Assembly (NCBI GenBank): GCA_013239625.1
Contig: MU053810.1
Coordinates: 3,876,071 to 3,940,070, forward strand
Source of the DNA: Lama guanicoe
Lineage: Eukaryota
Length of the DNA: 64,000 nt
Direction: 5' to 3'
Shown here one piece after another: positions 240-60,269 of the stretch. The notes below the pieces were generated by a model. That model saw only the letters and a list, made by a program, of their open reading frames with translations, had not been told where the DNA came from and made no database searches. How positions within the stretch are numbered: the stretch's first letter is position 1; each line of letters begins with the position of its first letter. Position numbers and translations under genes: made by a program.

Positions 240-300
240 CCTTCAGTGAAAGCTGAGAGGATATCGGATCACTGACCAGGTCTACATACTTGTTGTCCAT
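240..300 (-). CDS. C10orf67: C10orf67-like exon MDNKYVDLVSDPISSQLSLK(G); phase 0 to 1; the final exon lies left of the window
   Basis: Acceptor ttacctgcag|ATG, donor AAGG|gtaagg, 61 nt. Resembles human [21 protein letters not shown] as recalled. Confidence 0.8.
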
Positions 301-22104: not shown

Positions 22105-22164
22105 CTTGGTGCCTGTGGCGTCAAACTTTCTTCTCATTTCAATGTCCTCTTTCTGTTTATTAAC
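22105..22164 (-). CDS. C10orf67: C10orf67-like exon VNKQKEDIEMRRKFDATGTK
   Basis: aatctcacag|GTT...AAG|gtttgc, 60 nt. Resembles human INKQKEDKEMRKKY. Confidence 0.87.
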
Positions 22165-22689: not shown

Positions 22690-23155
22690 TTAAATTGAGA
22701 TATTATTGACATGTAACAGGTGTACAACATAATGATTCAATATTTGCATATATTACAAAATGATCACAATGAGTCTAGCTAACACCTATCATTATACATG
22801 TTATAATTTTTTCTTATATTGGGAACTTCTGCTCTCTTAGCAGCTTTCAGATAAGCAATACAGCATTATTAACAATACAGCATTATTAACTACAGTCACC
22901 ATGTTGTACATTATATTCCCCTAACTTACTTTTTATTACTATAAATTTGTGCCTTCTGAACACCTTTACCCATTTAATCCCGCACCTCACACCTCTGGCA
23001 ACTGTGAATCTGTTCTCTGTATCTATGAGTTTGGGTTTTGTTTTTTTTAATCCACCTATATGTGAGATCATATGGTATCTATTTTTCTCCATCTGACTTA
23101 TTTCACTTAGCATAATTTCCTCAAAGCCCATCTATGTTGTTGCAAATGGCAAAAA
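22690..23155 (-). mobile_element. L1 3' end
   Basis: The ORF track shows the L1 ORF2 C-terminal peptide IMLSEISQMEKNRYHMISHI. Confidence 0.85.
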
Positions 23156-23396: not shown

Positions 23397-26978
<3,582 letters not shown>

Positions 26979-27229
26979 CTGTCTCATGAAATCTTGGAAA
27001 CAGGAAGGATAGTAACTGATGCCCAGGAGGGACTGTATTTAGAGGGTCTTGGTGAGTTTTAACTCAAGGCTGATGTTATAACTAAGCTCCATCATAATGG
27101 TTTGAAATCATTTTCTCCATATAATTATAAGAAATTGCTAAAAAAATTAATAAGTTCTCTCTCATTCACTAAAAATACATTTACTGAGTGCACATTATAT
27201 GCCGGACACTAAAAACATACATAAAGCCA

Positions 27230-29020: not shown

Positions 29021-30147
29021 CTAGTGGAGGTTAAACAAGAGAGAAGTAAGATTATAGGAGAAGAGATAGTTAAGATGTCATAACTATGGTAATCCAGGTG
29101 AAAAATGTTGGTGGCTTGACCAGGGGATAACAGGGGCATGATGAAGATGAAGATGGGATTATGAGCTGTAATTTTAGAGATAATTAGCTAGATTTTTCCA
29201 TTTGAATGAATTGATGGTGGTGATGAACAGCAAGGGAAAGAAAGAAATCAAATTCAAGATGCCTGAAACATCCAAATGTGGATGTTTAGTTGGCAAATGG
29301 AATTTTAAGGCTGGAATGTTAAGGAGAGGTGTGGACTGGAAATAAAAAGTTGGAAGTCATAAGAATACGAGTGATGTGGAATGGATAGCTCACCAAGGAA
29401 GAGGCTACAGAGAAATACAAGAGAACCCACTACACTCAGTGGAGGAAACTCAACATTTAGAAGACTCCAAAAGGAGGAAAACCAGCAAGGTAGAACAAGA
29501 ATGAGACAACTGGGGTGGAGGCCTCCAAAAATCTCATCCTGTAACAGCACCAGCTTGAAGTCAGGATCTTATTACTTAAATCAGGACCAGGAGCAAATGA
29601 GGCCCTTTGACTAAGTCTATCTTGATTAGAAGACACAGGAACTAAAGAGGCAAGTTATCTGATCCCACAGCCAAGATACCATGGTAGGACATAGGATGAC
29701 CTCGAAAGACCCTTGCCTTGGGTCATGGATGTATCTATTCCTACTGGAAATGTGTGATGGTTCCTAGGCACAGAAATTCAGACATGTACTTTATTAGAGT
29801 AAATATCTGGGTTATCAAAATATCAGTTTTCTAGCTGAATGACCAAACACTGCCATGTTACATACACTAGAACTGGGCAGACTTGAAGTGTGGCTCAGAG
29901 GGAACCCAGGCAACAAGGGGACCTGTTATGAGATCAAAGCTGACTGCAGGGACAACTCAGTGCTGTGCCCTCAAAATGAGAAGCTAGAGTAACATGTGCG
30001 ACTGCTTTCAATCTCAAGTCTGGATTTTTCCTAGAAATAAGGTGCACTGGAATGAAGTAGATGGAAAATCAGTTAAGGACAAGAGTTCAGTTATGATACT
30101 CTTCTGATGAGAACACTCTTTTTTGTTAGCTTCATGAGAAATGAAAG

Positions 30148-32147
30148 TTCAGGATACAAAATCTACAGATAAAAGTCAGTAGCATTTCTACACACTAATG
30201 ATGAATTATCTGAGAGAGAATAAAGAAAATAACCCCATTTATAACAGCATCAAAAACAATAAAATATTTAAGAATATGTGTAACCAAGGGGGTGAAAAAA
30301 TCTCTATACTGGAAAAGACACTGATGACAGAAATTGAAGAACACACAAATAAATGGAAAGAAACTTTGTGTTCATAGATTGGAAGAATCAATATTGTTAA
30401 AATATCTATATTACTCAGTCACCTATAGATTCAATATAATCCCTATCAAGATTCCAATGACACTTTTTACAGAAGTAGAAAAAACAATCCTAAAATGTAT
30501 ATGGAACCGTACAGACCCCAGAAAACCAAAGCAGTCCTGAGAAAGAAGAATAAAGCCAGAGGAATCACATTTTCTGATTTCAAATATATTATAAAGCTAT
30601 AAAATCAAAACAGTATGGTACTAGCATTAAGAACAGAGACATAAATCAATGGAACAGCATCAAGAATATGATCAACTAATATTTGACAAGGCAGACAAAA
30701 ATACTCAGTGGAGAAAAGACACTCTATTCACTAATCAGTGCTGGGAAAACTGGATAGTCCCATGTAAAAGAATGCAACTAGACCCCTGTATCTGACACCT
30801 CTCACAAAAATTAACCCAAAATGGATTAAAGACTTAAATTAAAGACTGGAAGCCATAAAACTCCTAAAGAAAAACATAGGGGAAAAGCTTTTTGACATGG
30901 GTCTCAGCAATGATTTTTTTTTTGGATATGACACCTAAAACACAAGTAACAAAATAAAAAATAAACAAATTGGGACTAAATCAAACTAGAAAGCTTCTGC
31001 ACAGCAAAAGAAACAATCAACAGAACGAAAAGGCAAACTACAGAATGGGAGATAACATTTGGAAACCATGTATGTCATAGGGGTTAATATCCAAAATATA
31101 TAAAGATCTCATACAACACAATAGCAAAAAAATCCAAATAGCCCAATTAATAAATGGGCAGATGACCTGAGTAGACATTTTTCCAAAGAAGATATTCAAA
31201 TGGTCAACTGGTACTTTTATTTTCAGGAAAGTGCAAATCAAAACCACAATGAGATATCACTTCCCAATTGTTAGAATCGCCATTGTCAAAAAGGCAAGTG
31301 GTAACAAGTGTCGGCAAAGATGTGAAGGAAAGGGAACCCCTGTGCACTGTGGGAATGCAAACTGGTGTAGCCACTATGGAAAACAGCACACAGGTTTCTC
31401 AAAAAATTAAAAAGAGAAGTACCATATGATCCAGCAATCCCACTTCTGGGTATTTATCCAAAGGAATCAAAACACTAACTTGAAAAGATATATGCACACC
31501 ATGTTCACTGAACCATTATTTACAATAGCCAAGACATGGAAGCAACCTAAGAGTCCACTGATAGATGTATGGATAAAGAAGATGTGGTGTATTTGTACAG
31601 TGGAATATTATCCAGCCATGGATAAAAAGGCAGTCTTGCCATTTGCAACAACATGGATGGACCTGGAGGGCATCATGCTAAGTGAAATAAGTCAGACAGA
31701 GAAAGGCAAATACGTGTGACGTATGACCTCACTTTTATGTGGAATCTTTAAAAACAACAACAACAACAACAAAAAATCCCTAAACCCCTAGATACAGAGA
31801 ACAGATTGGTGGTTGTCTGAGGCAGGGGATGAAGGAGGGGTTGGAAAAACAGGTAAAGGTGGTCAAAAGATAGAAACTTCCAGTTTAAAGATAAATAAGT
31901 CCTGGGGATACAATGTACAACATAGTGACTGCAGTTAACCATACTGTATTGTATATTTGAAACTCGCTAAGAGAATAAATCTTAAAAGTTCTCATCACAG
32001 GAAAAAAATTGTATACATTTGTATGGTAATGAATATTAACTACTAGATTGATGGCAGTGATCATTTTGCAATACATGCATATATCAAATCATTATGCTGC
32101 ATTCCTGAAACTAATATACAGTTATATGGCAATTATATCTCAGTTTT
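30148..32147 (+). mobile_element. 5'-truncated L1, ~2 kb, decayed ORF2 and 3'UTR
   Basis: ORF2 peptides [24 protein letters not shown] and FATTWMDLEGIMLSEISQTEK. Confidence 0.92.
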
Positions 32148-34093
32148 ACACACACACACAAAAAGGATAAATAAAAGCCACTAAGCGTAGGAATCACAAA
32201 AAGATTCAAAATTATTTTATATGCTTCTCTCAAAGCCAATCCAAGGACACAGCTGCTCCATACTTTACTACTGACCTCTACTTACTGATCCTAGTGGTTT
32301 ACTTCAAGCTCTTTGACTTTTTAAACTAGGCTCTTAATAGGCCAGAAAATAAACTGTATTGAAAAAGTAATAGTCAAGCATGGAACAAAAGCCCTTCAGT
32401 GAGAAAGTTCTTTTAATTTTTACACAATGACTCTGGTCAACACCACCTTCTCCCACTCCTCCATCTAGTCAAAATCACAAATCTCCATTTCTGGAAAAAT
32501 GCACTAGAGCAACGAAGGAAGCCCAGTCACAAAGCCAGCCTTCCTCTGAGGGGACAACAGACGCCCTTGGTGGGGGTGGGGGTGCCAAACAGTGGTCTCG
32601 CTGGACCCAAAGGCATGCCATGGAAACCCAGTCATAAGAACCTTAAGTGCACTCCCTCTACTGAAACCGTGAACCCCCGAACCAGTTCTGAGCATGCTGA
32701 AGGCTCTTTGCAGTTGTGAGGTTTGCGGTGCAAAATCTCGCTGCTTGGCAACAAGCGTGGTGCGCAACTTCTAAACTTCTAGGCAACAAAATAAAACGCG
32801 ATTGGTTCCCCCATGGGCAGGAGAATAGCACCGGCAAGCGCTTACAGTTCAAATAAAGAGGCAAAGCAATTCAGAGACCGTGGGGTCTGTTCACAGCCTA
32901 GGCATAAGCTCACTGATTAAGTAGTTTAATTTCTTGTCTAATACTGCTGACGAACTGACAGTTTAACATTGGCTTACCGCTCTATAAAAATACATTTCCA
33001 TTCATGACAATGTGCACATTCAGTTGTTTGTTTTCAGAAGCAACTCCTGGACTTGGGGGTAATGACAGAAGAGGATGGGATGAGGCAGGAGAAATCTACC
33101 AAGAAAACTCCATCACAGAGACAATTTTTATATGTCAGGTGTTTAAAAGTAAAGAATTCAAAAGAAACATATTTGTTAACACATGGTTTCGGTGGCTAGC
33201 TAACCACGATTGTTTTCCTAGCCTGCATTCCCAAGCTGGTTTCATAGAAGGCTTTATTGTAGTCCCCGAGCATTGTTTTGCATTAATTTCTATGACAAGG
33301 CACCCAAAACACATGGTGCTGAGAGTAACAAAACAGAGTTAGGGAAACAGTCATGACTTGGCACAAAGTGTGACAAGCTGTAAAAAAGGGAATGTTTCAA
33401 TATCTGAAGTGGTGTTGATTTCCTATGAACAACCTTTTCTCTTCTAAACAGTATCATATTCTTTTCAAGCACATTTAGAACGCAAGTCAAGCTGTGTTTT
33501 ATTTTTGATTATAATAAACACAGTCAGTTTACTGTAACAAAGACATACTCGTGGTGATCAGTTGAAAGCCAGAGTACAACACCATAAGATGGGCAGGGGG
33601 TGAGGTGGGGGATCCTGGGGGGTGGGTAGTCAACTGATAAAATAAAAGACCAGCCGTCTGGAAAGTTCTCTTAAAAGAACATAAAAAGGCAGTGTTTTCT
33701 TATGAGACCAACACAGAATGCCAAAATATCTGGCTAGCCTCTTTTTTGTTTTCACTTATGGCAATTTGTAACTAAAAATAGCAAATCCTTCAAAATATTG
33801 GGCTCTCATATTTGTTTTTTTAATCCCTATAATAAACAAGAATTTTGCAAACTGTTTTAAATTGTAATACTCTTTCTTATGTAAGACTCTTCTACATAGT
33901 ATGTTAATTACAGTACCACCTAAACTGTTTTCTTCAAAACAATCATTAAAAATGTTTATAATTATGCACGCATTTAGATTGATAAAAGTGAAATGAAAAG
34001 TTCACAGCAAATAGTTACAAATAAAGCTTATAAAACTTTCATAATTAAACTCCTGGATACAAATTTATTAAGAAATAATGTAAATCCTCTTAC

Positions 34094-34159
34094 CACTTCT
34101 TGAACCAATGATTTTTCAAAATCAAGCTCATACAGTAATTTGTCTCTACCATCCATTAG
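34094..34159 (-). CDS. C10orf67: C10orf67-like exon LMDGRDKLLYELDFEKSLVQEV, copy A of a duplicated exon
   Basis: ttctcttgcag|CTA...GTG|gtaaga, 66 nt, phase 0-0. Resembles human [22 protein letters not shown]. Confidence 0.87.
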
Positions 34160-36195
34160 CTGCAAGAGAAGAATATTACATTTTGATTAAAGATAAGAAC
34201 AGAGCACCTGAGATTCCTCCTTAATAAAATTTAGTTAAACATATTTTGATTCTAAATGTGAGGGGAAAATGGATCCCAGTATAATCAAAGCAAAAAAAAA
34301 AAAGTCCACAGATTATCATGTAATAATAATATATTATTATACAACTATTATATTTTATTATGTAAACAAGCAAAATATACACAGAAAATGCCAATTTTTT
34401 ACAGCCTTTCTCACCCCACTTCCCCCAAAATGTGGTAACAATACATAATAAAGAAAGTCCTAGTTTATCAAAAAGAGCCATTTTGTTTCACTCTTTATAT
34501 GACCCATTTCTCTTATTTTAAGTTTTTGTGCTATACTTATATGCACATCAAGCCATATTATGCCAGTTGAAAATAGCCATCAAAGCATATACTGTGGGAC
34601 CTTTGTAGTAATTTGGCTTGTCTCATTACTTTAAATGATTGTCATTTGTGTGTGGTATATACACTGACAAAATTCAGCAACTTCTTTTGACATCCATTCC
34701 ATTCAATTAATTCATATACTTATTAACTTAATAAACGTGTTTGGAGCACCTTTTGGATGCGAGGCATTTTGTTGGGCTGTGGAGGTATAAAAATGAAAAG
34801 CAGATCCCTTCCCTGGAGCATCTATATAGTACAGTAGGGGAGCAATGTGAAAAAAATGACTGTAACACGCAAGCAAAAAGGTCACTCAATCAAATCTTCA
34901 GGTAGTCCAAAAGCATAAAAATCCACATCACCTAGCAACCGTAATTACAACAAGATCTCTATGCCTGGTGGTAATGGCACAGAAGTGCTATTGGACAAGG
35001 GTCTTGAAGGATCTGTAGAAGTTCAACAAGCTAGAGAAGAAGAAAGGCAAAGATGATGGCAATCAAAACAGCAAAGTAACCACAGAGAAGCATGGAGTGA
35101 TGGAGGAACTGGGAAGAGTCTGGTGTTTCTGGACCCAGGGCACGTCTAGACAGGAATGGCAGGAACTGAAGGCAGACGGTGATCCAAGGGGAAATTATGA
35201 GGGTCCTTGCCCACCTTGGTTAGGAGTAGAGGTCAGAAAGGTGTGATGCAGAGAACAGGGGTAAGTTCAGATCAGAGCACTGCTGCTTACTAGCTGTGGA
35301 GGTAAATTAATTCTATGCTTCAAGTCTTAGTTTTCTCTTCTCTAAATTAGTATAACAAAACTGACATTGAAGACTTTTTCTGAAAAGAATTTGAGACAGT
35401 AAATGTGAAAGTGCTTAGCTGTTCCTGGCACATAAAAATCACCTAGAATGTTTTGGGATCTCCTGATTTTATACTGAAGGCAATGGGAAACCAGTGAAGG
35501 TTTCAGCACGTAGGATGAGGGTATCAGATCCCATGGCAGCAACGTGGAAGCCAGATTTGCAGGGGGATGAGCTTGAAGACAGGAAAATGAAGTAGGACCT
35601 GATGGACGTGAGGAGGACCTCCATCAAGTCTGTGACAATGTTCCTGCAGAGAAAGGAGAATGGAGATACATTTTGGAGAGAAAGTCTACAGACCTAATGA
35701 CCAACTAGACACAAGGTGTCAAGGAGAGAGTAGAGGAAGACCTTAGATTTGTCTCTGGTCCTCTGGACAGATGGCAATGTCATTCATTTAAGTGGTGAAT
35801 ACGGTCAAGTCCAGATTTACAGAGTAATGAATTCAAGTTTTGACACTGGGTTTGAGGAACATGGAAGGCATTTTTGTTCAGCAAATATTTTTAAGAGCTG
35901 ATAATAAAGGATACAAAGATAAGACATGGTTATTGACCTCCATGGAGCAAAAATTGTTTTAAATTGTAATACTCTTTCTTATGTAAGACTCTTCTACATA
36001 GTATGTTAATTACAGTACCACCTAAACTGTTTTCTTCAAAACAATCATTAAAAATGTTTATAATTATGCACGCATTTAGATTGATAAAAGTGAAATGAAA
36101 AGTTCACAGCAAATAGTTACAAATAAAGCTTATAAAACTTTCATAATTAAACTCCTGGATACAAATTTACTAAGAAATAATGTAAATCCTCTTAC

Positions 36196-36261
36196 CACTT
36201 CTTGAACCAATGATTTTTCAAAATCAAGCTCATACAGTAATTTGTCTCTACCATCCATTAG
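36196..36261 (-). CDS. C10orf67: C10orf67-like exon LMDGRDKLLYELDFEKSLVQEV, copy B (identical)
   Basis: Same 66 nt and same splice sites as 34094-34159, offset by 2102 bp. Confidence 0.8.
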
Positions 36262-39200
36262 CTGCAAGAGAAGAATATTACATTTTGATTAAAGATAAGA
36301 ACAGAGCACCTGAGATTCCTCCTTAATAAAATTTAGTTAAACATATTTTGATTCTAAATGTGAGGGGAAATGGATCCCAGTATAATCAAAGCAAAAAAAA
36401 AAAAGTCCACAGATTATCATGTAATAATAATATATTATTATACAACTATTATATTTTATTATGTAAACAAGCAAAATATACACAGAAAATGCCAATTTTT
36501 TACAGCCTTTCTCACCCCACTTCCCCCAAAATGTGGTAATAATACATAATAAAGAAAGTCCTAGTTTATCAAAAAGAGCCATTTTGTTTTACTCTTTATA
36601 TGACCCATTTCTCTTATTTTAAGTTTTTGTGCTATACTTATATGCACATCAAGCCATATTATGCCAGTTGAAAATAGCCATCAAAGCATATACTGTGGGA
36701 CCTTTGTAGTAATTTGGCTTGTCTCATTACTTTAAATGATTGTCATTTGTGTGTGGTATATACACTGACAAAATTCAGCAACTTCTTTTGACATCCATTC
36801 CATTCAATTAATTCATATACTTATTAACTTAATAAACGTGTTTGGAGCACCTTTTGGATGCGAGGCATTTTGTTGGGCTGTGGAGGTATAAAAATGAAAA
36901 GCAGATCCCTTCCCTGGAGCATCTATATAGTACAGTAGGGGAGCAATGTGAAAAAAATGACTGTAACACGCAAGCAAAAAGGTCACTCAATCAAATCTTC
37001 AGGTAGTCCAAAAGCATAAAAATCCACATCACCTAGCAACCGTAATTACAACAAGATCTCTATGCCTGGTGGTAATGGCACAGAAGTGCTATTGGACAAG
37101 GGTCTTGAAGGATCTGTAGAAGTTCAACAAGCTAGAGAAGAAGAAAGGCAAAGATGATGGCAATCAAAACAGCAAAGTAACCACAGAGAAGCATGGAGTG
37201 ATGGAGGAACTGGGAAGAGTCTGGTGTTTCTGGACCCAGGGCACGTCTAGACAGGAATGGCAGGAACTGAAGGCAGACGGTGATCCAAGGGGAAATTATG
37301 AGGGTCCTTGCCCACCTTGGTTAGGAGTAGAGGTCAGAAAGGTGTGATGCAGAGAACAGGGGTAAGTTCAGATCAGAGCACTGCTGCTTACTAGCTGTGG
37401 AGGTAAATTAATTCTATGCTTCAAGTCTTAGTTTTCTCTTCTCTAAATTAGTATAACAAAACTGACATTGAAGACTTTTTCTGAAAAGAAAATGAGACAG
37501 TAAATGTGAAAGTGCTTAGCTGTTCCTGGCACATAAAAATCACCTAGAATGTTTTGGGATCTCCTGATTTTATACTGAAGGCAATGGGAAACCAGTGAAG
37601 GTTTCAGCACGTAGGATGAGGGTATCAGATCCCATGGCAGCAACGTGGAAGCCAGATTTGCAGGGGGATGAGCTTGGAGACAGGAAAATGAAGTAGGACC
37701 TGACGGACGTGAGGAGGACCTCCATCAAGTCTGTGACAATGTTCCTGCAGAGAAAGGAGAATGGAGATACATTTTGGAGAGAAAGTCTACAGACCTAATG
37801 ACCAACTAGACACAAGGTGTCAAGGAGAGAGTAGAGGAAGACCTTAGATTTGTCTCTGGTCCTCTGGACAGATGGCAATGTCATTCATTTAAGTGGTGAA
37901 TACGGTCAAGTCCAGATTTACAGAGTAATGAATTCAAGTTTTGACACTGGGTTTGAGGAACATGGAAGGCATTTTTGTTCAGCAAATATTTTTAAGAGCT
38001 GATAATAAAGGATACAAAGATAAGACATGGTTATTGACCTCCATGGAGCAAACAGTCCCAGGTATGTGAGCAAATAGTCCCAGGCACAGTGGAAGTCCCT
38101 AATTACCATAGGGGACAGGAGGGGACTGTCAAGGAAGTCTTCGCAGGGCATGTAACAAGGAAATTGAGGATGAAGATGGAAGTGATATTATGTATGTAGT
38201 GTTCAGGGAAAACATGAAGCAGGAGAGAAAGTCTGGAGGTCAACGGTAAACAGATGTGCCAGTTATAGGAGAGTCTAAGGTCAGCCAGAGAGAAAACAAT
38301 GACAACCAAGGATAAAGAGAATTCCCAGGACAGCATTCTCGTGAAAGATGGAGGAAGAGAAACTATCGACAAGTATTGCTCACGAAAGAGTGAAAAAATC
38401 AGAAGCAAGCATTGCTGCAGAAGGCATCTCTGACATGGGGCATAGATCTGTCATGCAGAAGATTCAAGAAGGAATAAGACTGAAAAGGACTGAGGGCAAG
38501 AGGAATCTCATTGTGACCTTATCAATGGGAAAAACTAGCAGTGGGGGCGTGAAGAAGGGACTGTTAGACACAGATTTCTTTTTGTTGATATTTGAAGAAG
38601 AGGGAATGGTGATGGCTTCAGGGGTGGTCAAGGTCAGGGGATACCACCCAGGATGATGCCTTGGCTATGTCTGTAGGCTGGAGGGAAATGCTTAAAGGCA
38701 CAAGAGAGAGAAAGGCTGATGAAGAAATCCCAAAAGAGGAGGAAGGAAGAGATGGAGTCAGGCAAACAGGTGGATGGATAGGTCAAGGCAAAGAAGAATG
38801 TCCCTTCTTCTGATGAGAAGGTGTAAAGGTGAGGCTAGGTACGCTAAGTGACAGGGTGAGCAAGAGAGTGCAGCGGAGAAAACAAATCCAGGTGCCTGCC
38901 ATGTTCTTTGTGAGTTACTCCAGGAGGAGAGGAGGAACAGAGATGGAATTGAGGAAAGTAGCGGTGATGGGCAGAGTGCTAGTGGGCAGTGAGAAAGCGT
39001 GCCAATTAGACCCAAGTGAAAGGATGGGGAGAGGGAGCGCACAGTGACTCTGGGTTAAAGCTCCATATGCATCTTGCAGTGTCACCTAAATCAAGGATCG
39101 GCTGTCTCCAAAGGTACAGGGCAGTCCCCGAGCAGGGCTGGGGAGCGGGGAGCACTGGTTGTATGAGAGCCTCAGAAGGTGGTGTAGTTGAAGCTGTGAA

Positions 39201-39445
39201 AGGCTGGACAGAGGCTTTAGAGAAAGTAAATCAATGAGAAGTGGAAGGAAACGAAAAGATTTCGTGTTAAGTCATTATATCTTAGTCTAAAAAGAAGCGT
39301 CATCAAGTTTCCAATGGGCATCAATTACTGGCCGCTGGCCACACCCTTCCTTCCTCCTTAGATCTCTCAGTTATCTCTACTCTCTGTTGTGCTTTTCCCT
39401 TCTCATTCTTCTTCCCAATGACATCATTTGAAAATACTCTAGTTT

Positions 39446-39567
39446 TGTGGGGGAAGGTAGTGCTCAGTGGCAGAGCACATGCTTAGCGTGCACGAGGTCC
39501 TGGGTTCATCTCCCAGTACCTCCATTAAAATGAATAAATCAATTAATAAACCTAATTACCTCCCCCC
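39446..39567 (+). mobile_element. tRNA-derived SINE (vic-1-like)
   Basis: A/B boxes; 15-bp TSD aaaatactctagttt at 39431-39445 and 39568-39582. Confidence 0.88.
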
Positions 39568-40113
39568 AAAATACTCTAGTTTCATCTTTTAAAAAATTCC
39601 TCCCTCAATCCCATGTCCCCCTCCAACTCCTCCCTGACGTCTCCCTGGCCACCTGCAGCCAAACTTCTAGACAGTTGCCCACGTTCACTGTTCCCACTTG
39701 TGCATTCACCCCCTTTTCTCTACTGCTTCCAGAATCCAGTCAAATGACACTCATGAATTAACAGATGCCAAAGCTAACTGTCCAATCTTCCCTTTTTAGC
39801 CTTTCACACACCTGGCCTCTGGCAACACTGGCCACACTGAATGCTTCCTTCCTTTTTGAGACTCTCATGCTTGGCTTCTGTGATAGCCTCTGCCCTGCTT
39901 CCCTCCTGCCCTACTCCTGTTCCCATTCTCATCTGAATGTTACCCAGCTTTCACTTCTCTCTCTCCTTTATCTCTCCCACCTTCAACCTTATCAAATTCA
40001 TAACTTTTACTGCCTAATCATCTCTTGAACTCATCCTCTCCTTCATCTCCAGGGTCACAGTCCTCTTTCTGTTTCAGGACTTTGTAGTTGCCCTGGTTTA
40101 TACGAGAAACCTT

Positions 40114-41499
40114 GGTTTTTCTTTCTTTCTTTCTTTCTTTTTTTTTGGTCCTGGCGGCAGCAGGGCTGACCGGCGGTGCCCACCCTTCAGGTTTCTGTGC
40201 CTCCGTTCCGCTCTCCACCTGCTCGCTGCCCACTTCGCCACCATGACAGAACAGGCCATCTCCTTCGCCAAGGACTTCCCGGCCAGAGGCATCGCCGCCG
40301 CCATCTCCAAGACAGCCGTGGCCCCGATCGAGTGGGTCAAGCTGCTGCTGCTGCAGGTGCATCATGCCAGTAAGCAGACTGCGGCCGACAAGCAGTACAA
40401 AGGCGTCGTGGACTGCATCGTGCACATCCCCAAGGAGCAGGGCGTGCTGTCCTTCTGGAGGGGCAACCTGGCCAATGTTACCTGCCACTTCCCCACGCAA
40501 GCCCTCAACTTCACCTTCAAGGACAAGTACAAGCAGATCTTCCTGGGGGGTGTGGACAAGCACATGCAGTTCTGGAGGTATTTTGCTGGCAATCTGGCCT
40601 CTGGAGGTGCAGCTGGAGCCACCTCCCTCTGCTTTGTCTACCTGCTGGATTTCGCCAGAACCTGCCTGGCAGCCGATGTGGGGAAGTCCAGCGAGGAGCG
40701 GGAGTTCAAAGGCCTAGGAGACTGTCTGGTGAAGATCGTGAAGTCTGAAGTAGTCCGAGGCCTGTACCAGGGCTTCAACATCTCCGTGCAGGGCATCATC
40801 ATCTACTGGCCGCCTACTTCTGCATGTATGACACGGCCAAAGGCATGCTCCCCGACCCCCAAAACACCCACATCATGGTAAGCTGGATGATCGCGCAGAG
40901 GTGATGGCCATGGCCAGCGTGGTCTCCCACTCTCTCGATACCGTGCACCGGTGATGATGCAGTCTGGCCGCAAAGGAGCCGACATCATGTACAGGGGTAC
41001 CCTGGACTGCTGGTGGAAGATCTTCAGAGATGAAGAGGGCAAAGCCTTCTTCAAGGGTGCCTTCGTGCTGGTCCTGTACAACGGACTGAACAAGGTCATC
41101 TAGGCGCCGCAGGCCCGGGCCTGCAGGGCCCCAGAGAGTGATACTGACACCTAACTGTTATGGACCATTGACCTTTGAGAAATTCCAGGCCTTGCGGGGG
41201 GCTGGGCAGCTCTGGCCAAGGGCGCATTGTCACTGTGGCCATCGACACTGCAGGTCCACGCGTTGATTGGGGAATTAAGGCGTCTTCGTGGGTCCACTAG
41301 TGAGGCAGCTCTGCCAAGGCACACCTAGACTCCCAGTACTTGTAGGACAAACCCATGTTTAAGTATTTATTTAAAACAAATCATGTCTCCCATTTGTACT
41401 TAGGCACTGTTCTCTTTTGCATAGCTGAATACTTGCAGTTATGTTCTAAGTTGGGCATTCAGCTACAGAATAAAAACAGGACTCCAAAAAAAAAAAAAA
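40114..41499 (+). pseudogene. SLC25A6: Processed pseudogene of ADP/ATP translocase 3 (ANT3)
   Basis: [13 protein letters not shown]-terminus and ..LNKVI* end (40243-41103) fit ANT3. Intronless, with frameshifts after ~40810, loss of the RRRMMM motif and deletion of WSNVLRGMGGA. AATAAA at 41469-41474, poly(A), TSD agaaacctt at 40105-40113 and 41500-41508. Confidence 0.93.
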
Positions 41500-41563
41500 A
41501 GAAACCTTATAACTGATCTCTCTGGCTTTGAATTTTTCCTCCCTGCCATTTGTTTTCTTTCTG

Positions 41564-41781
41564 CATTGTATATTCTTGCCTCCTTTGTCGAAGATTAACT
41601 GACCATAGGTCTGTGGGTTTATTTCTGGGCTCTCTTTTCTAATCCATTGATCCATAAGTCTGTTTTTATTCCAATACCATGCTGTTTTGATTACTGTAGC
41701 TCTGTAGTATTGTCTGAAGTCTGGGAGGGTTATTCCTCCAGCTTCGTTCTTTTTCTTCAAAAATGCTTTGGCAATTCTTGG
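41564..41781 (-). mobile_element. Tail-less internal L1 ORF2 fragment with a TSD
   Basis: Peptide [37 protein letters not shown]; 14-bp direct repeat ttgttttctttctg at 41550-41563 and 41782-41795. Confidence 0.88.
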
Positions 41782-43204
41782 TTGTTTTCTTTCTGAAACA
41801 CAGATCTGATCTTGCCCCAACGTTCAAAGCTCCCATCCACTCAGAAGGCAACTCAAACTCCTTGGCATGAATAACAGCCCTCCAAAATATGCCCTGCTTC
41901 TCACCACCCTGTTCCCACAAACCCTCCAGCCTTAGCAAGTTGCGTGCATGCCCCCTTCTCACATTCTGGCTCTTCCCACCTCCCCTTCATCCTTTCCTGG
42001 CTAATTCTAACCTCTCTCCTGGGACTCAGCTCAGTGTCCTTCCTCCAAACTTCCCTGCTCCCTTACAGCCCAGGCTGGGTGTGCCCCCACAGCAGCTGAT
42101 GCTGCTGTGTCCTGATGCCAACCACACCTGGGCTGCGATCTCTGACCACTGGCCTGTCCCCTCAGAAAGGAATTCACAGTGTAGCCATAGCTGGGACACA
42201 GATTCAGCTGTCATTAGATTACTGAAATTCAAATGTAAAATTTACTGAATCCCATACACAACAATGCTGAGCCCAGGACGATGGCCAGAAGTCATCCTCC
42301 CCAAATTCAGTTCCATCTTCAGCTTGTTTTTACTTGCACCAGGGCTGAAAAGGAGACCCTGTGGCTCATCCAGAGGCTCCAGAGCGGCGCATTACCGTTC
42401 TTCCATCTTTTGCTTACTCCTTCCACACACCCACACTTCCTCCTCTTCCTGCCCCAACACAAATTCTCACCACTTAGTCTCACCGGATTCCACCTCAAGC
42501 TGTACGCACCCCAGTCACAAAGAGCTCCACAAGTGGACCTGACACTGTGCAGCTCTTCCCCCCCAGCCACCTGGAAAAATCAGTTCGAGCGCAGGAGAGT
42601 GAGATGGGTGCGGAACTGCTGAAGTCTTTCCAGACCCTTCCAGGTCAAGCCCAGCATCTCTTCTCTATGTACGTCCTTCTGTTACGGTCCCCATCACACT
42701 GGCCTGTGGGTTCTGTCCCTCCCTCTAGACTAGCTCTCCTCCACAACGGGACTCTGTGTGTGTGTGATGTGCGTATAAAATTTTTGTATCTCAGCAGTGC
42801 CTGGTGCTCAAAGGCATCTACCAAACATGCCAAATTAATTGATTTAGCGAAGGATACTGGAAACAAACCAGGAAATATCAGCCCCCATTTGTTCAACAAT
42901 TCCTGATCTGCTTTTCAACTGATGAAGCTCTCTGACGTATGTTATCTCATTCCATCCACACAGTGAGCCCATGAGACTTGGGAAGAAAGAGTCGAGAAGA
43001 AAGGGGATAAGGAACAGGATAAGGGGCTGTAGTGTCAGAAATAGAAGAGGAACCCAGGGTTCTAGATTCCTTGTGCTCAATACCAAATCGGGCCTATATT
43101 CTTGGCCTTGGTGGAGGCCCAGTGCATATGAAGGAAAAAAAACCAAAAGAGCCAGAATCCAAAAAATGATCAAACAGACTAGGGGTCTGCTATATTTATC
43201 TAGA

Positions 43205-43700
43205 ACAGAGCTGTCAAATAAAAATATAATGTGACTCACAGACATAATTTGGAACTTTACAGTAGCCTTGTTAAAAAGGTAAAAGAAACAGGTGAAATTG
43301 ATTTTAATATATTTTATTTATCCCAATAGGTACCCAAAATACTATTTCAATGTGTAATAATCAATCTTAAAAACCATTAGTGAGATATTTCACATTTCTT
43401 ACAGTACCTAAGTCTTTGAAATCCAGTGTGATTTTTCACTTACTGTGCATCTCAATTTAGGGGCTAAAATTCCACTGGAGATACTCAATTTATATCTAGA
43501 TTTCATTAAATATACAGGTAAAAAAGTAGATTCACATATTCGAGTTATTCAAAACATACATGAAGGTTTTTCACTAACTGAAACAAATATCAATTTCTAC
43601 ATTAAAATTAAAACTAAATATAATTAAAATTCCACTTCTCAGCTGTACTAGACCCAAGTGTTCAATAGCCACGTGTGGCTGGTGACAACCACTGGGCAGT
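43205..43700. mobile_element. hAT-Charlie (MER3/MER33-like) DNA transposon relic
   Basis: cagagctgtcaaata...tcaatagccacgtgtggctggtgac ends typical of the MER3/MER33 family; family assigned from memory. Confidence 0.65.
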
Positions 43701-45010
43701 GCGGAGCTAGAAAGCTCAGGCAGCATTTAATAGAAATATTTAAGCTCACACAGGGTCTAACCAGCCACTCGATAGGGATGTTTCTTTCTAATCAATGGCT
43801 TAATGGTGAGACTTTTTGCTTTAATTTTCTTGAACTCTCCCCAAAGACTAGTAGGCTCACCCAACTCATCCCTACCAGTGACAGTACAGAATGAACAGCC
43901 TGGCAAACATTTGCATAAACCGAGATGGTTCCCTTGCAGGTGATTAATTGAAACCAGAAACCTGAGATCTCATTCTCACTCTCAGAAGTTGATGCCAAGA
44001 AGGTTAAACTTTTCTGTTCACAGACTCTTGTTATCTTGGTAAGAATGGCATTTGCACTGTCACCATTGAAAATAGGATGAAGCACAAGAAAATGACATCA
44101 CGTTGTAGAAGCCTGTGATGGATTCAGTGACGACAGAAAACATCCCCCAACTCTGACCCATCATGGGACGCAGTTCTTTTAAAAACAGTTCTTGGAGGTA
44201 ATTTTATCTAAAACCTAAGAATACCTTCAACTGTAAAATCAGGTTGAAATCTGGATCTAAACTTAGTCACACGAGCACTAGACGTGAGGCTAGTGTGACT
44301 GAGGAATTGAAGTTTTATCTAATTTTAATTAATCTTCATTAAAAAATTGATATTCAATCCAGTTACTGGAAAGCATTTACATTTATTTGGAATAATTCAG
44401 GGATGTAAATCCACATTTTTATCTGTAAATTTTATGAACTCTAACTACATTCTCATTCTGTGAAGCACTCATAGAGCATTTTTATAAGTATGCCAGACAC
44501 TGTGCTGAGCGCTGGGAGGATACCAGAAACTGAGAGACAGTGCTGCCTCTGGGTCACGGGGCCATCGCAGGACAGCCTGACCATCACAGGCAAGGGTTTT
44601 GAAAGCTGCCACAGCTGCAACACTTGTGAGAACGAAGGAAGCACAAAGCAGGAGCACCTGACCTGTGGGTGGACCTGCCATGGTCCGGCCCATCGGATGC
44701 ACCAGGAAACACCAGAAGAATTCCCTGCTCTAAATAGAGATTACCTGGGTAACACAAACCCAGTCCATTTATATACAGGAAAATGAACCTAAACCAACAT
44801 CTAATTGGAAAATAAGACTGTTTATTCTTGATAACATAATTTTTCCACAAGCACATCTCTGGACTCCTATGTTACATGATTTTTCAATTTCTCACAATCA
44901 ACAAGGTAGGCATGCCTGTCACACTGGGACTGTGCAGGCGTTTAATGCTATTGAAGACATGGGTTTAAATCTCTATGCAACCCAAATCAAAGAAAACAAT
45001 AATTCATTTT

Positions 45011-45241
45011 CAATTGAAGTATAGTCAGTTTACAATGTTGTGTTCATTTCTGGTGTACAGCACAGTGATTCAGTTATATATATAATACATGTATGTAATT
45101 ATATATATAATATATATATAAAATACATATATATATAACTTTTTTATAAACGTTTTCATATTCTTTTTTCATTATAGGCTATTACAAAGTAGTGAATATA
45201 AGTTCTCTGTGCTACATGGTAGGATCTTGTTTATTTTATAT
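45011..45241 (-). mobile_element. L1 3' end with a TA-rich tract
   Basis: tacaatgttgtgttcatttctggtgtacagcacagtgattcag motif; near-perfect TSD agaaaaca(a/t)taattcatttt at 44990-45010 and 45242-45261. Confidence 0.8.
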
Positions 45242-45433
45242 AGAAAACATTAATTCATTTTTAAGCTGGAATCCTTTTTCATTACTAGAGATCCTACCCA
45301 AATAATGGGAGAGACTAAATACAGAAGTCAGCTTTTCTCTGCATCACAAGGGGGACACAGTGTTATTTCACCAATTATGCTGATATTTCCATTTAAAAGA
45401 GTCATCCATCAATGTAAAAAAAAGTTACAGTAC

Positions 45434-45492
45434 CTTTTTAATGGTTTTATGATCCTGTTCTGCCTTCTCTTTCAGACTTATAATTTCATCTT
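45434..45492 (-). CDS. C10orf67: C10orf67-like exon (E)DEIISLKEKAEQDHKTIKK
   Basis: tttgtttacag|AA...AAG|gtactg, 59 nt, phase 1 to 0. Resembles human [20 protein letters not shown]. Confidence 0.9.
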
Positions 45493-46476
45493 CTGTAAAC
45501 AAAAGGAGAGAGGGGCCAACCATGAAATTACAAGCTTATGCCCCTGTATTCAATCTGCCTGCTTCAGGGCAGGCTGTACACCACTGGCAGGCATGGTGGA
45601 CGCAAGTCCTAGCAGGACTGTGACCTTCACAACTGCCCTTGACATTCACAGCCTTCTTCCTGCTGTTCAGACGGCTGGTCAGATAGGGATTAAGAACTAA
45701 GTTCAAGATCCAAGTATGGCTGAGGATTGCAAGCTTTTCACCGAGACCAGCGATGGACACTTCTGCTGTTAGTCACAGCCAATACAAACTACTTTAGCAG
45801 GTGGCACTTATGACTCAGTAAGAACCACCCAAACCTGAAAAAAGCACTGTTACATTGTGTCAGAAGAGAAATGAAACTACACTGGCTGGTATAATTACAT
45901 ATTCAAGGAATACAGTCCTGCATCTGACTTTATCAATGTTTTGCTATAAGTTTTCTATTGCTTACTCAGAGCTTTTCATTCTGCAGATTAAGGGCAAAAT
46001 TATATAAACAACATAAATATAAAGAGAACAGTACATGTCAATACTTTAGAGCACTCTAACTTTGATGATGTAAATGCAACATTTACCAATGTTTATGGTA
46101 TGTAAAAAGAAGGGGCGGGAGGGTTCTACAAATGGAAATTGGTACTTAAAATTTGTCCCTAAAATTGAAGGTAAAGTAGTAAACAGTATGATATTTTCTG
46201 AAGGCTAACTCTGTTTCTCCACAAAGCATATCCCAATATGTATGCTTAAGTATTAAAATGTTACACATTTTTAGATAATCGATTAAGCACATGAAACAGA
46301 AGTCAGCAAAAGTTTGTTTATAATATTTCTAAGCGATGTAGAGCACTGATTAGCATATTTTTTCAAAGGCCAATACTTGGCTTAAGAAATAACCACCCTG
46401 AGTTAAAAACGTGTGGCTAGGGGAGTACGACCAAGTTCCGTTCCAAGAAAAGAATGAAAATCAAAAATGACTATCA

Positions 46477-46737
<261 letters not shown>

Positions 46738-49700
46738 CTAAAAGATGGAGAATTCCATATTTCTAAGCCGGGAGCCAAGGATTTAAATATGCAACACAAG
46801 ACAATACAGAGACACAAGAGCTATCATATAATTTTCTGAATTCTATTACACACTTATAATATGAATAGTAAAAAGGAAGGAGACTAAATGGAGCTTGCTG
46901 GAAGAAAGGCTGCAGTCCGTTCTGTACAAAGACCACAGCACATGGGGACAGTTTATTGACAGGAATAATGCATATCATACTGTTTGTGTGCCCTCATCAT
47001 TCAGGTCAATTCATTATGGAGGCTGTGTCCGGGGAGGCAGCTGGGGCCCCTCCACCCACCCTTCCCTCTGTGTGCATCTGAAGTGCTGTCCGCGCGTAAC
47101 TAGGCAGGCCGCGGGGACCGCGGACGGGCAGCGCCAGGGGGTGGCAAAGCGCATGGCTAGGGAGGGGGGCTTGTTGCCTTTGTGGCATTTCCCAGTGTCA
47201 GCGCTGCCAGTGTCAGGAGGAGCACATCACATGTCAAAGTGGTGACGTTTCCAGGCTGGGAGCCGCATGGAGTCCATCAGGCACACGGATATCCACACAG
47301 TTGGTTTTCTGCTGGGTGGAGGAGCCACCCAGAGGCAATTCATATTCTGAACATTAACATGGCTTTGCATGCCTGTCACACTGGGACTGTGCAGGCGTTT
47401 AATGCTATTGAAGACATGGGTTTAAATCTCTATGCAAACAGTGATTACCTTGTAAGAAGGTTTCAGGATAACTTCCAACAAAAGACTTTTAAAGTTATAG
47501 TTTTAGTAAAGCAAGCTCATTTACATTTTTATTATGTGTGTCTTTTGTTTAAATCTTGCCATGTCCATTATGGGAGAAGCTTTTTCTTACACGATAGAAG
47601 CTTATTGGGAAAGCTACCCTCCTTTTCTTCTTCTCATCTGGTTCAAAGCTATTGAAAACATCTGAATATACTTGCTTATGGCTGTCTAGATTTTCCTGCC
47701 ACACACTGTTTTTTTAAATCAAGACGTAATGAATTGGAGAAGCTGGTGCAAAACTTTATACTTCATGATGGTAACATATTAAATTGATTATGCAATTAAA
47801 TTTATTATTTCAAAATATTAAAGTGCCTGCTTGAAAGTCATTATATTGTTACGCTAAAAGAGACGTGTCTATATATGCCTTCCTTCAAAATTAATATAGA
47901 CACTAGAAGTACTTTTGAACTTTAATCTTGAGATGAATTATAATTTATTTCTTGTAGCAATGCTATGATTGCAAATACACAAGAATAAAATCTCCTCTTG
48001 AAAATAAAATCATCTCTCCCAAGATAACTGGTGTCTTTTTGAACCTGTATTTTATTTAACTCTAGAGATATCTGAAAGCAAATTATTAAAATGTTTTCCT
48101 CTGTGGTCATAATGGTTTGAGAGAAAAAATGAGTAGTGACAGTGCTTTGCAGGACATTCATAAACCCTTAAAAAACAAGTGACTTACTACTGAAGTTAGT
48201 TATGTCAGCATTAACACTTAATGTTAAATTTTGCACTAAGCCCGATTATGAATCTTCACGATTTTGATTCACCATTCCACTTAAATTGTTTGAGCCCAAT
48301 TCATTCTTAATTAATGAGAACTAACAAAGGTAAAAGCTAAGAAACTATGCTGTTTTCTTAATAAAGGAAAAATCCCAGTCATTAGTTTCCTATCCCACAT
48401 GGTTAAATTTGAGAACATCACAGAATGTATTTATAGACTAAAAAAGCTTTTTAAAAAACAAACAATATTTTCCTTAATAGACTGAAGTGTAGATTTCCTA
48501 ACAGTGGCAGAAAATGAACACCCACAGCGGATTAGGTGAGCACCCCCATTACTGTTAACTAAATACGAACTATTTAAATTAATCAGATGAAGTATAAAAA
48601 TTACAAGTGACAGCAGCTAATACCTAAATGGTATTCTAAAAATCTCATAGAAAAGCAGGAAACAGGGAAACATGTTCAACTCAAGGCTTTTGTTATTCCT
48701 CCCCCCACAAATCCACCAACAGCCCCTGTTCTGAGAGGTTAACCTTTAGCTCTGTCCCCACCATCTGTCAGCTGCAGGAACTGCAGGTCATTAACTATTC
48801 AGATTCCCACAGCAATGAGGACACTCATTAGCAAAATGAACAAAGGGATAGTTCTGGGCGGCTACGGTCATCTGTTACACTTTGAGTGGCAGGTTTTGTG
48901 GTGGTGTTCCTTCTACCATCTGCCCATACCACTAACTTTGCCTGACTTAAACCATGAGACTTCTGTAAAATGAACTGCGTTAATAAATGAAAGTTAAGAA
49001 GGATGGAGATCATTAAAAGGGGGTTAACTAGTTTAAGCAATTTCAAGTCACATTCTCGTCAAAGACAGTTTGTGTGGGACCCATGATCACTCTTGAATTT
49101 TACATTCATAAAGTAACTTGCCAATTTAGAGTTTTCCTCTCGTGCAGTGAGAGTTAGGACTTTCAGGTGGTGGCTGACATGGCATTTCTCCTGTGAACAG
49201 TCACGAGATGTGCAGTATCACTGTTTCCGGGTTTCAGAATTCCAAACTGAGTCATCAAAGAATTGTTTCTGAAGACAAGTGCGGAGTCTGAAGACTCGAG
49301 CCTTGCTAGAATGTGGTCCAAGCACCAGGAGACTCAGCAGCATGTGGGAGCTTTTGGGAAATGCAGGATCTCAGGGCTCAGCCCAGACCTCCTGTCAGAA
49401 TCTGTATCTTAACAAGAGCTGCAGGTGACCCCCCTACACACAATAAAGTCTGAGCCGCACTGTTTGGAGCACCACATGTGCCCTCCCAGCAGTCTCCCTT
49501 CTGCCACATTGGCGTCTTAATTCTGTAGGCTCCACGTAGAGGACTCGGACATCTCAATTTGATGGTGGGGTTGCGGGGGAGTGTGTGGAGCAGTCCCGAT
49601 GTGTGCCCATGCTGCATGACAGTCACAGAGAAGAGCAGGTGCTTCCCCTGTGAGTGACAACCAGGAAAGCAGCACACTAGGCAGTGCAGCCCTGCAGAGC

Positions 49701-52664: not shown

Positions 52665-52916
<252 letters not shown>

Positions 52917-58569: not shown

Positions 58570-60269
58570 TTTTAAAAAATTTTTCATTGATTTATAATCA
58601 TTTTACAATGTTGTGTCAAATTCCAGTGTTGAGTACAATTTTTCAGTTATACATGAACATATATATTCATTGTCACATTTTCTGTCTCTGTGAGCTACCA
58701 TAAAATCTTGTATATATTTCCTTGTGCCTATATACAGTATAATTTTGTTTATCTATTCTACAATTTTAAAATCCCAGTCTATCTCTTCCCACCCCCCGCC
58801 CTCTTGGCAACTATAAGTTTGTATTCTATGTCTGTAGTCTATTTCTGTTTTGTATTTATGCTTTGTTTGTTTGTTTTTAGATTCCTCATATGAGCGATCT
58901 CATATGGTATTTTCTTTCTCTTTCTGGCTTACTTCACTTAGAATGACATTCTCCAGGAACATCCATGTTGCTGCAAATGGCATTATGTTGTCGGTTTTTA
59001 TGGCTGAGTAGTATTCCATTGTATAAATATACCACTTCTTCTTTATCCAGTCATCTGTTGATGGACATTTAGGCTGTTTCCATGTCTTGGCTATTGTAAA
59101 TAGTGCTGCTATGAACATTGGGGTGCAGGTGTCATCCTGAAGTAGGGTTCCTTCTGGATATAAGCCCAGGAGTGGGATTCCTGGGTCATATGGTAAGTCT
59201 ATTCCTAGTCTTTTGAGGAATCTCCATAGTGTTTTCCACAGTGGCTGCACCAAACTGCATTCCCACTAGCAGTGAAGGAGGGTTCCCTTTTCTCCACAGC
59301 CTCTCTAGCATTTGTCATTTGTGGATTTCTGAATGCTGGCCATTCTGACTGGTGTGAGGTGATACCTCATTGCAGTTTTGATTTGCATTTCTCTGATAAT
59401 TAGTGATATTGAGCATTTTTTCATGTAATTTGTATGTCTTTCTTGGAGAACTGTTTGTTTAGGTCTTCTGCCCATTTTTGGATTGGGTTGTTTATTTTTT
59501 TCTTATTAAGTTGTATGAGCTGCTTATATATTCTGGAGATCAAGCCTTTGTCGGTTTCATTTGCAAAAATTGTCGGTTTCATTTGCAAAAATTTTTTTTC
59601 CCAATCCGTAGGTTTTTTTGTCTTACTTATGGTTTCCTTTGCTGTGCAGAAGCTTGTAAGTTTCATTAGGTCCCATTTGTTTATTCTTGCTTTTATTTCT
59701 ATTGCTTGTGTAGACTGTCCTAGGAGATCATTTTTGAGATGTATGTCAGATGATGCTTTGCCTATATTTTCCTCTAGGAGGTTTATTGTATCTTGTCTTA
59801 TGTTTAAGTCTTTGATCCATTTTGAGTTGATTTTTGTGTATGGTGTGAGGGAGTGTTCTAGCTTCATTGTTTTACATGCTGCTGTCCAGTTTTCCCAACA
59901 CCATTTGCTGTCTTTATTCTATTGTATATTCTTGCCTCCTTTCTCGAAGATTAGTTGACCAGAAGTTTGTGGGTTCACTTCTGGGCTCTCTGTTCTGTTC
60001 CATTGGTCTATATGTCTGTTTCTGTACCAATACCATGCTGTCTTGATTACTGTAGCTTTCCAGTATTGTCTGAAGTCTGGGAGAGTTATTCCTCCAGCCT
60101 CTTTCTTTCTCTTCAGTAATGCTTTGGCAATTCTAGGTCTTTGATGGTTCCATATAAATTTTATTATGATTTGTTCCAGTTCTGTGAAATATGCCCTGGG
60201 TAATTTGATAGGGATTGCATTAAATCTGTAGATTGCCCTGGGCAGTGTGACCGTTTTAACAATATTGAA
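58570..60269 (-). mobile_element. Young 5'-truncated L1, 1.7 kb
   Basis: Well-preserved ORF2 peptides ([39 protein letters not shown]); 17-bp TSD tgaatactttaaatatt at 58553-58569 and 60270-60286; internal 22-bp tandem duplication near 59548-59592. Confidence 0.95.

Follow-up and report, generated by a model that had tools for sequence, protein, structure and literature searches.

Exons of the poorly known gene C10orf67 lie in order on the minus strand, from 52862 to 241, of the 64-kb stretch of guanaco DNA analysed here (the window). The first-pass annotation had already named this gene, and the exon order, a 52-amino-acid exon that is 100% identical to C10orf67 of alpaca and dromedary, and the domains (the exon at 6097-6183 matches DUF4724, and the alpaca protein P0013 carries DUF4709 and DUF4724) all agree with it. 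A search of the ESM Atlas with the 52-amino-acid exon returned only unnamed short coiled-coil-like clusters, with recognition below threshold. The window contains no N, and within it self-BLAST finds a single pair of long near-identical repeats, two head-to-tail units of about 2.1 kb (33847-35951 and 35955-38053; 99.6% alike) inside C10orf67. The features of this region are as follows (strand is given where a feature has one):

33847-33852: left outer breakpoint, microhomology GCAAAC (exact 6 bases).
33853-35951: unit copy 1, downstream in the transcript direction (unit alignment).
35952-35954: junction insertion AAT replacing the microhomology C (possible template AAATTGT at 33859-33865, not significant).
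35955-38053: unit copy 2, closing with the right outer GCAAAC at 38048-38053 (unit alignment).
34068/36170, 34439/36540, 34489/36590, 35390-1/37491-2, 35576/37677 and 35603/37704: differences within the unit (copy 1/copy 2).
45434-45492, minus strand: upstream neighbour exon, ending in phase 0 (protein mapping and X16 RNA).
36196-36261, minus strand: first of the two 66-nt coding exons in transcript order, phase 0-0 (protein mapping and an RNA contig of run X16).
34160-36195, minus strand: GT-AG intron of 2036 nt newly formed between the exon copies, spanning the junction.
34094-34159, minus strand: second of the two 66-nt coding exons in transcript order, phase 0-0 (P0013 residues 267-288).
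22105-22164, minus strand: downstream neighbour exon, starting in phase 0 (protein mapping and X16 RNA).

The self-BLAST alignment of 33849-35951 with 35951-38052 has 2103 columns at 99.57% identity, with 8 mismatches and 1 gap, the latter a 1-base indel within an A run (34266). Of the 8 mismatches, 7 are substitutions that fall in 6 events within the 2098 bases of the unit; the eighth is the junction base. The 66-nt exon (LMDGRDKLLYELDFEKSLVQEV) is the same in both copies, as are the 40 bases ahead of its acceptor and its GTAAGAG donor, which bears out the earlier description of near-identical units each carrying an identical exon with intact splice sites. The exon is symmetric, as had been said (66 nt = 3 x 22, phase 0-0). 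The assembly thus holds adjacent direct copies, each with a complete exon and its splice sites, the arrangement by which a tandem exon duplication is recognised. A Pfam search with the 22-residue exon found no family, and its 66-nt pattern had no match in metagenome contigs, a collection without the locus. Rfam gives a single tRNA-like match on 30000-48000, at 39453-39524, outside the unit. The PTF1A pancreatic enhancer, which is reported from an intron of human C10orf67 (c.1570+4090; PMC12118367), was considered as part of the duplication and set aside; it should lie near codon 523, past the last exon of the window (241-300) and more than 30 kb from the unit.

The exon is used in a relative. 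An RNA contig of run X16, a camel-like sample, has the 66-nt exon spliced once between its neighbours at a depth of 130; it lies on 36194-36263 with no differing letter, and its loose ends run into both neighbouring exons. The sample appears to be single-copy.

Both outer ends of the duplicated region carry GCAAAC (33847-33852 and 38048-38053), exactly 6 bases in common, as the first-pass annotation had it. Random breakpoint pairs share at least 6 bases in 0.2% of cases when placed exactly, and in 2.2% when up to 3 bases of slack are allowed, so the match exceeds chance expectation. The extra bases it had noticed at the junction are also there: the unit end runs to 35951 (equivalent to 38052), AAT follows, and the unit start resumes from 35955 (equivalent to 33853), so that AAT stands for C with a net gain of 2 bases (35944-35960, GGAGCAAAAATTGTTTT). 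Five of the 6 microhomology bases are retained, and since the full word was not used as a clean overlap we count this against a biological reading. That the 3 extra bases were templated is a weak reading and not above chance: the 7-base word at 33859-33865 that might have supplied AAT is equalled by 7, 10, 16 and 18 of 62 random trimers at radii of 15, 25, 50 and 70 bases, respectively. Of the proposed signature of template switching or microhomology-mediated end joining, the microhomology is supported, and a templated insertion is weak. The junction resembles those of the polymerase theta type (GDBr, PMC11724358) in the short word common to the two breakpoints and in the handful of additional bases at the join, for which nearby sequence could be a source; it differs in that its 3-base insertion has no local template above chance, and, as tandem duplications are set aside in that work, the likeness is one of analogy. 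If the junction is present in the animal's DNA, a DNA end that had broken or stalled in the right GCAAAC may have been joined again to the left one, about 2.1 kb back, through a microhomology-guided template switch or end joining that would have left the 3-base scar. Because GCAAAC stands at both outer breakpoints, we favour a biological origin; an assembler that joined two allele contigs would have no reason to pick a shared word.

The two copies differ by 0.33% (7 substitutions in 2098 bases), about one tenth of the distance to the camel-like sample, so that an origin of both from one chromosome would date the duplication to about 0.7-3.5 Myr ago. Published camelid rates of heterozygous SNPs are 0.0018-0.0030 (PMC7331169), and under such heterozygosity the probability of 7 or more substitutions is 0.09-0.44. 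Since the difference fits camelid heterozygosity, the units are either two alleles, joined by the cell or by the assembler, or the products of a duplication 0.7-3.5 Myr ago. In the biological case different alleles would have been joined in a heterozygote, or the copies of one chromosome would have drifted for that time; a fresh sister-chromatid copy does not fit. The event had been called young, and this holds only in part: a recent origin requires two different alleles, and a one-chromosome origin would place it at 0.7-3.5 Myr. Transitions make up 5 of the 6 substitution events between the copies. At 37491-2 and 37704 X16 agrees with copy 1, and at 37677 it shows no departure from copy 2 (the latter rests on a missing row); with derived letters on both copies and mostly transitions, neither is just an error-ridden version of the other.

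The same divergence is what would be expected if the animal were heterozygous over these 2.1 kb and the assembler had set its two alleles in series and closed the join, in which case each chromosome would have one exon and the differences would be SNPs. The first-pass annotation was right to name such merging of haplotypes as the rival. False exon gains of this kind are a documented class of error (Ko et al. 2022, PMC9516828), to which the guanaco units are similar in being adjacent and in differing at the level of heterozygosity, and there are short-read camelid assemblies built with 2-kb mate-pair libraries. None of the 134 homologs that were fetched has the exon twice, as this explanation would also have it. 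The units are unlike typical heterotype false duplications in that their breakpoints share a 6-mer (0.2-2.2% by chance) and that no gap separates the copies, nor is there any in the 64 kb; gapless false duplications are described in the same source as arising through wrong gap filling. We regard this explanation as a serious possibility, though not the probable one.

The 22-residue block is single-copy in 122 of the 134 homologs. Each of the 5 alpaca proteins fetched has a single copy of the exon, and so do 10 of the 11 from Camelus; the eleventh is a fragment that ends before it. The camelid protein cluster was covered in 15 of its 42 members. An age above 0.7 Myr should have made the duplication widespread, and the single exon of the homologs argues weakly against it, since a second exon identical to the first may be overlooked in gene models. 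The DNA runs X1, X2 and X3 place only chance pieces of 18-24 bases on 35880-39300 despite a word share of 0.86, and an apparent joint from 36409 to 37488, with 21 letters a side, is a chance pair; these are filtered contigs in which holes are uninformative, and we count them neither way. The stretch 35880-36109 is covered by none of the 4 runs (3 DNA and 1 RNA, all as filtered contigs), and no read or contig in them spans the junction. The word shares themselves (best 0.86, with 14 of 24 rows at least 0.81) are blind to copy number, as a single-copy animal could reach 0.94-0.96. We think that this is probably a real and ordinary intragenic tandem duplication in a lineage or a haplotype of South American camelids. 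The fuller account that we favour, in which a real duplication arose by microhomology-guided rejoining and both exons are included by default, has in our view about an even chance of being correct in all its parts.

If the duplication is real both exons should be spliced in: inclusion of both is the default outcome because their splice signals are identical, each has about 1.8 kb of upstream intron, they lie 2 kb apart and the frame is kept. The copies share equal length, equal phase and homology (here identity over 66 nt) with mutually exclusive pairs, and the first-pass annotation had suggested that such splicing might begin here. Three general routes that enforce mutual exclusion are described in PMC5740500 (steric clash, U2/U12 mismatch, and frameshift on joint inclusion), and we found a feature for none of the three, the intron being 2036 nt long, the sites being of the same U2-type GT-AG class, and the exon being 3 x 22. 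A choice between the copies might also be made by competing RNA pairing, for which there is one candidate:

45335-45348, minus strand: 14 bases that can pair with 37343-37356 in one unit and with 35242-35255 in the other; geometry like that of a docking site, not above chance.

This putative docking site lies 86-99 bases behind the upstream donor, and its two duplicated candidate selectors each lie 1.08 kb ahead of an exon, an arrangement that Ivanov and Pervouchine (PMC6071210) had predicted, with 14 perfect pairs and a core of -22.4 kcal/mol. None of 20 shuffles of the unit pairs as well with the 300-base stretch, which was picked after the match had been seen; on the other hand, at least 14 pairs arise in 53 of 300 shuffles when the whole upstream intron is searched and in 86 of 300 when both introns are, and when 62 flanking 300-base windows are ordered by duplex energy, with G+C unmatched, the near-donor stretch comes 15th. 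Neither flanking intron forms a diverged inverted repeat with the unit. In 6 of the 134 homolog models, which come from other mammals, precisely the 66-nt exon is left out, so it may be skippable, and a real duplication in which mostly one copy is spliced in, by skipping or by mutually exclusive choice, is conceivable. We consider it unlikely, and with intron length, splice-site class and exon length as described and the RNA pair not outstanding, the suggestion of mutually exclusive splicing is not supported. If it were true, identical exons would leave the protein as it is, and the copies could later serve as raw material from which to diverge. We hold it very improbable that a mutually exclusive pair is being born here, a copied arm of an older long-range hairpin having given, in line with a published model, two selectors that compete for one docking site before the exons diverge. 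The gene would be one linked to hypoxia response and to selection in high-altitude mammals, and the lineage a high-altitude one; were it true and segregating, carriers and non-carriers would offer a direct test of how exon choice begins.

To return to inclusion of both exons, its effect would fall on a long coiled coil. A helix is predicted over residues 211-304, with a block pLDDT of 92-95 across the exon (residues 267-288). Its hydrophobic period is 3.50, and the best heptad register is the same in 211-245, 246-266 and 267-288. This supports the coiled-coil setting proposed earlier and the effect of 22 residues as three heptads plus one. A helix rises 1.5 angstrom per residue. Double inclusion would add 22 residues, or about 33 angstrom, to the continuous helix with a one-residue skip in the heptad register; in the sequence, doubling the exon cuts the periodicity power at 3.5 from 1.38 to 0.81. 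One-residue insertions can be absorbed through delocalisation or a pi-turn (PMC4786415).

Tandem exon duplication is a known kind of event, of which this is probably a further instance; a 2002 survey cited by Ivanov and Pervouchine (2022; PMC9013439) put internal gene duplication at about 10% of animal genes. The guanaco units are like the tandem exon duplications of animal genes in that paper in being a head-to-tail copy of more than 1 kb that holds one exon and flanking intron in its own gene, and unlike the typical ones in that the exons are identical, the units are 99.6% alike overall, and they are known from the assembly alone. They are adjacent and of equal length and phase like mutually exclusive homologous exons (Martinez-Gomez et al. 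2022, PMC9741552; Hatje et al. 2017, PMC5740500), whereas those pairs are mostly ancient, diverged and used one at a time; the two guanaco exons do not differ at all, and no feature that would enforce exclusion turned up. We found no literature report of a camelid C10orf67 duplication; the gene does not occur in the main text and two supplement files of PMC7331169. C10orf67 has been reported as selected in three Tibetan domestic mammals, and its knock-down as lowering apoptosis in hypoxia (10.1101/743955).

If the two units are an artefact, they matter only as an annotation trap in this assembly. If they are real, they would constitute a structural allele in Andean camelids that is worth genotyping, with no link to altitude from the present data, and a clean, datable first step of exon duplication, with identical symmetric exons, intact signals and known breakpoints. 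Such an allele would gauge how the spliceosome handles two identical exons and how far a conserved coiled coil tolerates a skip.

Self-comparison of the 64-kb window, which is free of N, detects near-identity over a long stretch only once, between 33849-35951 and 35951-38052 (99.57% identity over 2103 columns), inside C10orf67. Self-comparison and a direct check of the sequence show that the first-pass annotation described this tandem 2.1-kb unit, its exons, its GCAAAC ends and its junction correctly; the observation thus stands, and its interpretation is supported in part. The features are:

33847-33852 and 38048-38053: GCAAAC, at both outer ends of the duplication
35952-35954: AAT of the junction, with the unit end up to 35951 and the unit start from 35955 on
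36196-36261 and 34094-34159, minus strand: exon copies of 66 bases, the same in both units

The acceptors and donors of the two exon copies are likewise identical. Seven substitutions in six events (five of the six transitions) and one base within an A run distinguish the copies inside the unit; the alignment's remaining mismatch, the eighth, falls on the junction base, outside the unit proper. The unit also contains a perfect 18-base A+T-rich palindrome (36424-36441, above 30 of 30 shuffles).

Named C10orf67 proteins, which carry DUF4709 and DUF4724 domains, map onto the minus strand exon by exon from 52862 down to 241, and alpaca and dromedary C10orf67 match the 52-residue exon 52707-52862 with 100% identity. 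At most sites where alpaca and Camelus differ, the window has the alpaca residue, and three residues separate it from the alpaca models; it thus represents a South American camelid haplotype distinct from that of the alpaca annotation. Little is known of C10orf67: in three Tibetan domestic mammals it has been described as under selection, and its knock-down as reducing apoptosis in hypoxia (10.1101/743955); for an interaction with NOD2, BRET gave support and co-immunoprecipitation did not (PMC5094585); PMC6598621 yielded nothing on the locus. Among 134 proteins (16 camelid ones, supplemented with the others among the best 120 of 206 matches), 122 have one copy of the 22-residue exon, 12 have none (six of these by an exact skip of the 66 nt) and none has two. 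It is single-copy in 15 of the 16 camelid proteins, the other being a fragment that ends upstream of it; 15 of the 42 members of the camelid C10orf67 cluster were among those listed. The older alpaca model P0002 reads ...EKSLVISQVNKQ in place of ...EKSLVQEVVNKQ, with different splice sites where the 66-nt exon ends and where the following one begins; although located at the duplicated exon, this deviation is probably a modelling slip.

The exon is real, since a 357-base contig of RNA run X16 matches 36194-36263 without difference and its loose ends continue into the neighbouring exons at 45434 and 22164. The X16 sample appears to be Old World camel-like, because those ends contain a Camelus residue and because 81 of the 2422 letters of its long intronic contig deviate from the window. 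It includes the exon once, and one contig spans 36880 to 39297 unbroken, past the unit's right end, which, from the way such contigs break at branches, suggests that this sample has a single unit.

We lean towards a real duplication in a South American camelid lineage or haplotype. Tandem duplication of exons is frequent, affecting about 10% of animal genes in a survey cited in PMC9013439, and the C10orf67 case, known here from the assembly, behaves as an ordinary internal tandem duplication would and satisfies the sequence-level tests for one. There is a smaller but appreciable chance that two alleles were placed in a row during assembly: seven differences in 2098 bases are what two alleles would be expected to show (P(≥7) 0.09-0.44; published heterozygous rates are 0.0018-0.0030, PMC7331169), false duplications without a gap exist (PMC9516828), and no second animal or gene model shows the duplication. 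Three DNA runs produced nothing beyond chance matches of 18-24 bases, and none of the runs, the RNA run included, covers the junction; such holes prove nothing. The exon is not present in the metagenome contig collection. A literature search, most subscription papers being outside its scope, found no earlier report of this duplication.

The unit copies are 0.33% apart, or 0.10 (0.04-0.21) of their distance to X16. With a Camelini-Lamini split at ~17 million years (PMC12849490), an origin of both copies on one chromosome would date the duplication to about 1.7 (0.7-3.5) million years, close to the 2-3 million years of Lama-Vicugna (PMC7331169), and at least one species would then be expected to carry it commonly. 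Had the event been truly recent, two different alleles must have been joined in it, as an assembler likewise does; given the copy distance, the proposal of a young and polymorphic duplication is therefore tenable only in an inter-homologue version.

If the duplication is real, it would have arisen most simply when a DNA end, broken or stalled at the right GCAAAC, was joined again at the left one. A brief copying excursion across AAATTGT (33859-33865) may account for the extra AAT and would resemble the templated insertions attributed to polymerase theta (PMC11724358); the match is not evidence for this, because an equally long local word exists for 7 to 18 of 62 random trimers.

Other features lie nearby. 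An intronless, frameshifted PA-domain and RING-H2 ubiquitin ligase copy (3365-4400, minus strand; both domains confirmed with Pfam), presumably RNF130/RNF149-like, occupies a C10orf67 intron. The introns directly downstream and upstream of the duplicated exon hold, respectively, an intronless, frameshifted paxillin-like copy (24800-27040, minus strand; Paxillin and LIM domains in Pfam) and an intronless mitochondrial carrier copy (40100-41100, plus strand; Mito_carr), which we take to be ADP/ATP translocase-like. This makes three processed copies in 64 kb of a single gene, a large number, which would be consistent with the locus being open in the germ line. An exact 71-base direct repeat (44910-44980 and 47367-47437, 2457 bases apart), possibly a young templated insertion, flanks exons 45434-45492 and 46590-46737 and is a possible substrate for their deletion or doubling. 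Short units of 17 and 22 bases stand in tandem as two perfect copies each (22856-22890 and 59548-59593), and a tRNA-like Rfam match within a dispersed repeat (39453-39524, plus strand) most probably represents the head of a tRNA-derived SINE.

The structure of alpaca model P0013, predicted from a 62-sequence alignment, is poorly defined overall (pTM 0.22) and includes a helix at 211-304, with block pLDDT 92-95 across the exon (267-288). Hydrophobic columns over this helix have a period of 3.50, which suggests a coiled coil with a partner, and the best heptad register is common to 211-245, 246-266 and 267-288 and different in 289-304. Because the exon lies in a continuous register, double inclusion would add three heptads and a skip, so period and register bear out the predicted three-heptads-plus-one effect; with the exon doubled, the power at 3.5 falls from 1.38 to 0.81. 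Skips are harder to absorb than stutters, and are accommodated through delocalisation or a pi-turn (PMC4786415).

Inclusion of both exons would be the default expectation, since nearby signals are shared, the copies are 2036 bases apart and the frame is kept. Incipient mutually exclusive splicing, also proposed, is not supported: none of the enforcing routes listed in PMC5740500 applies to the two exons, which do not pass as a pair with enforced mutual exclusion, and functional cases are mostly ancient (PMC9741552). The remaining candidate lead for exon choice is the 14-base stretch 45335-45348, behind the upstream donor, which is complementary to a stretch now in both units, the same geometry as in the competing-pairing model of PMC6071210. 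In a post hoc test 0 of 20 shuffles outdid this pairing, but 53 of 300 and 86 of 300 reached it in tests over whole introns, where it does not exceed chance, and it ranks 15 of 62 windows. Even if the exons were chosen one at a time, the protein would still be unchanged, because they are identical.
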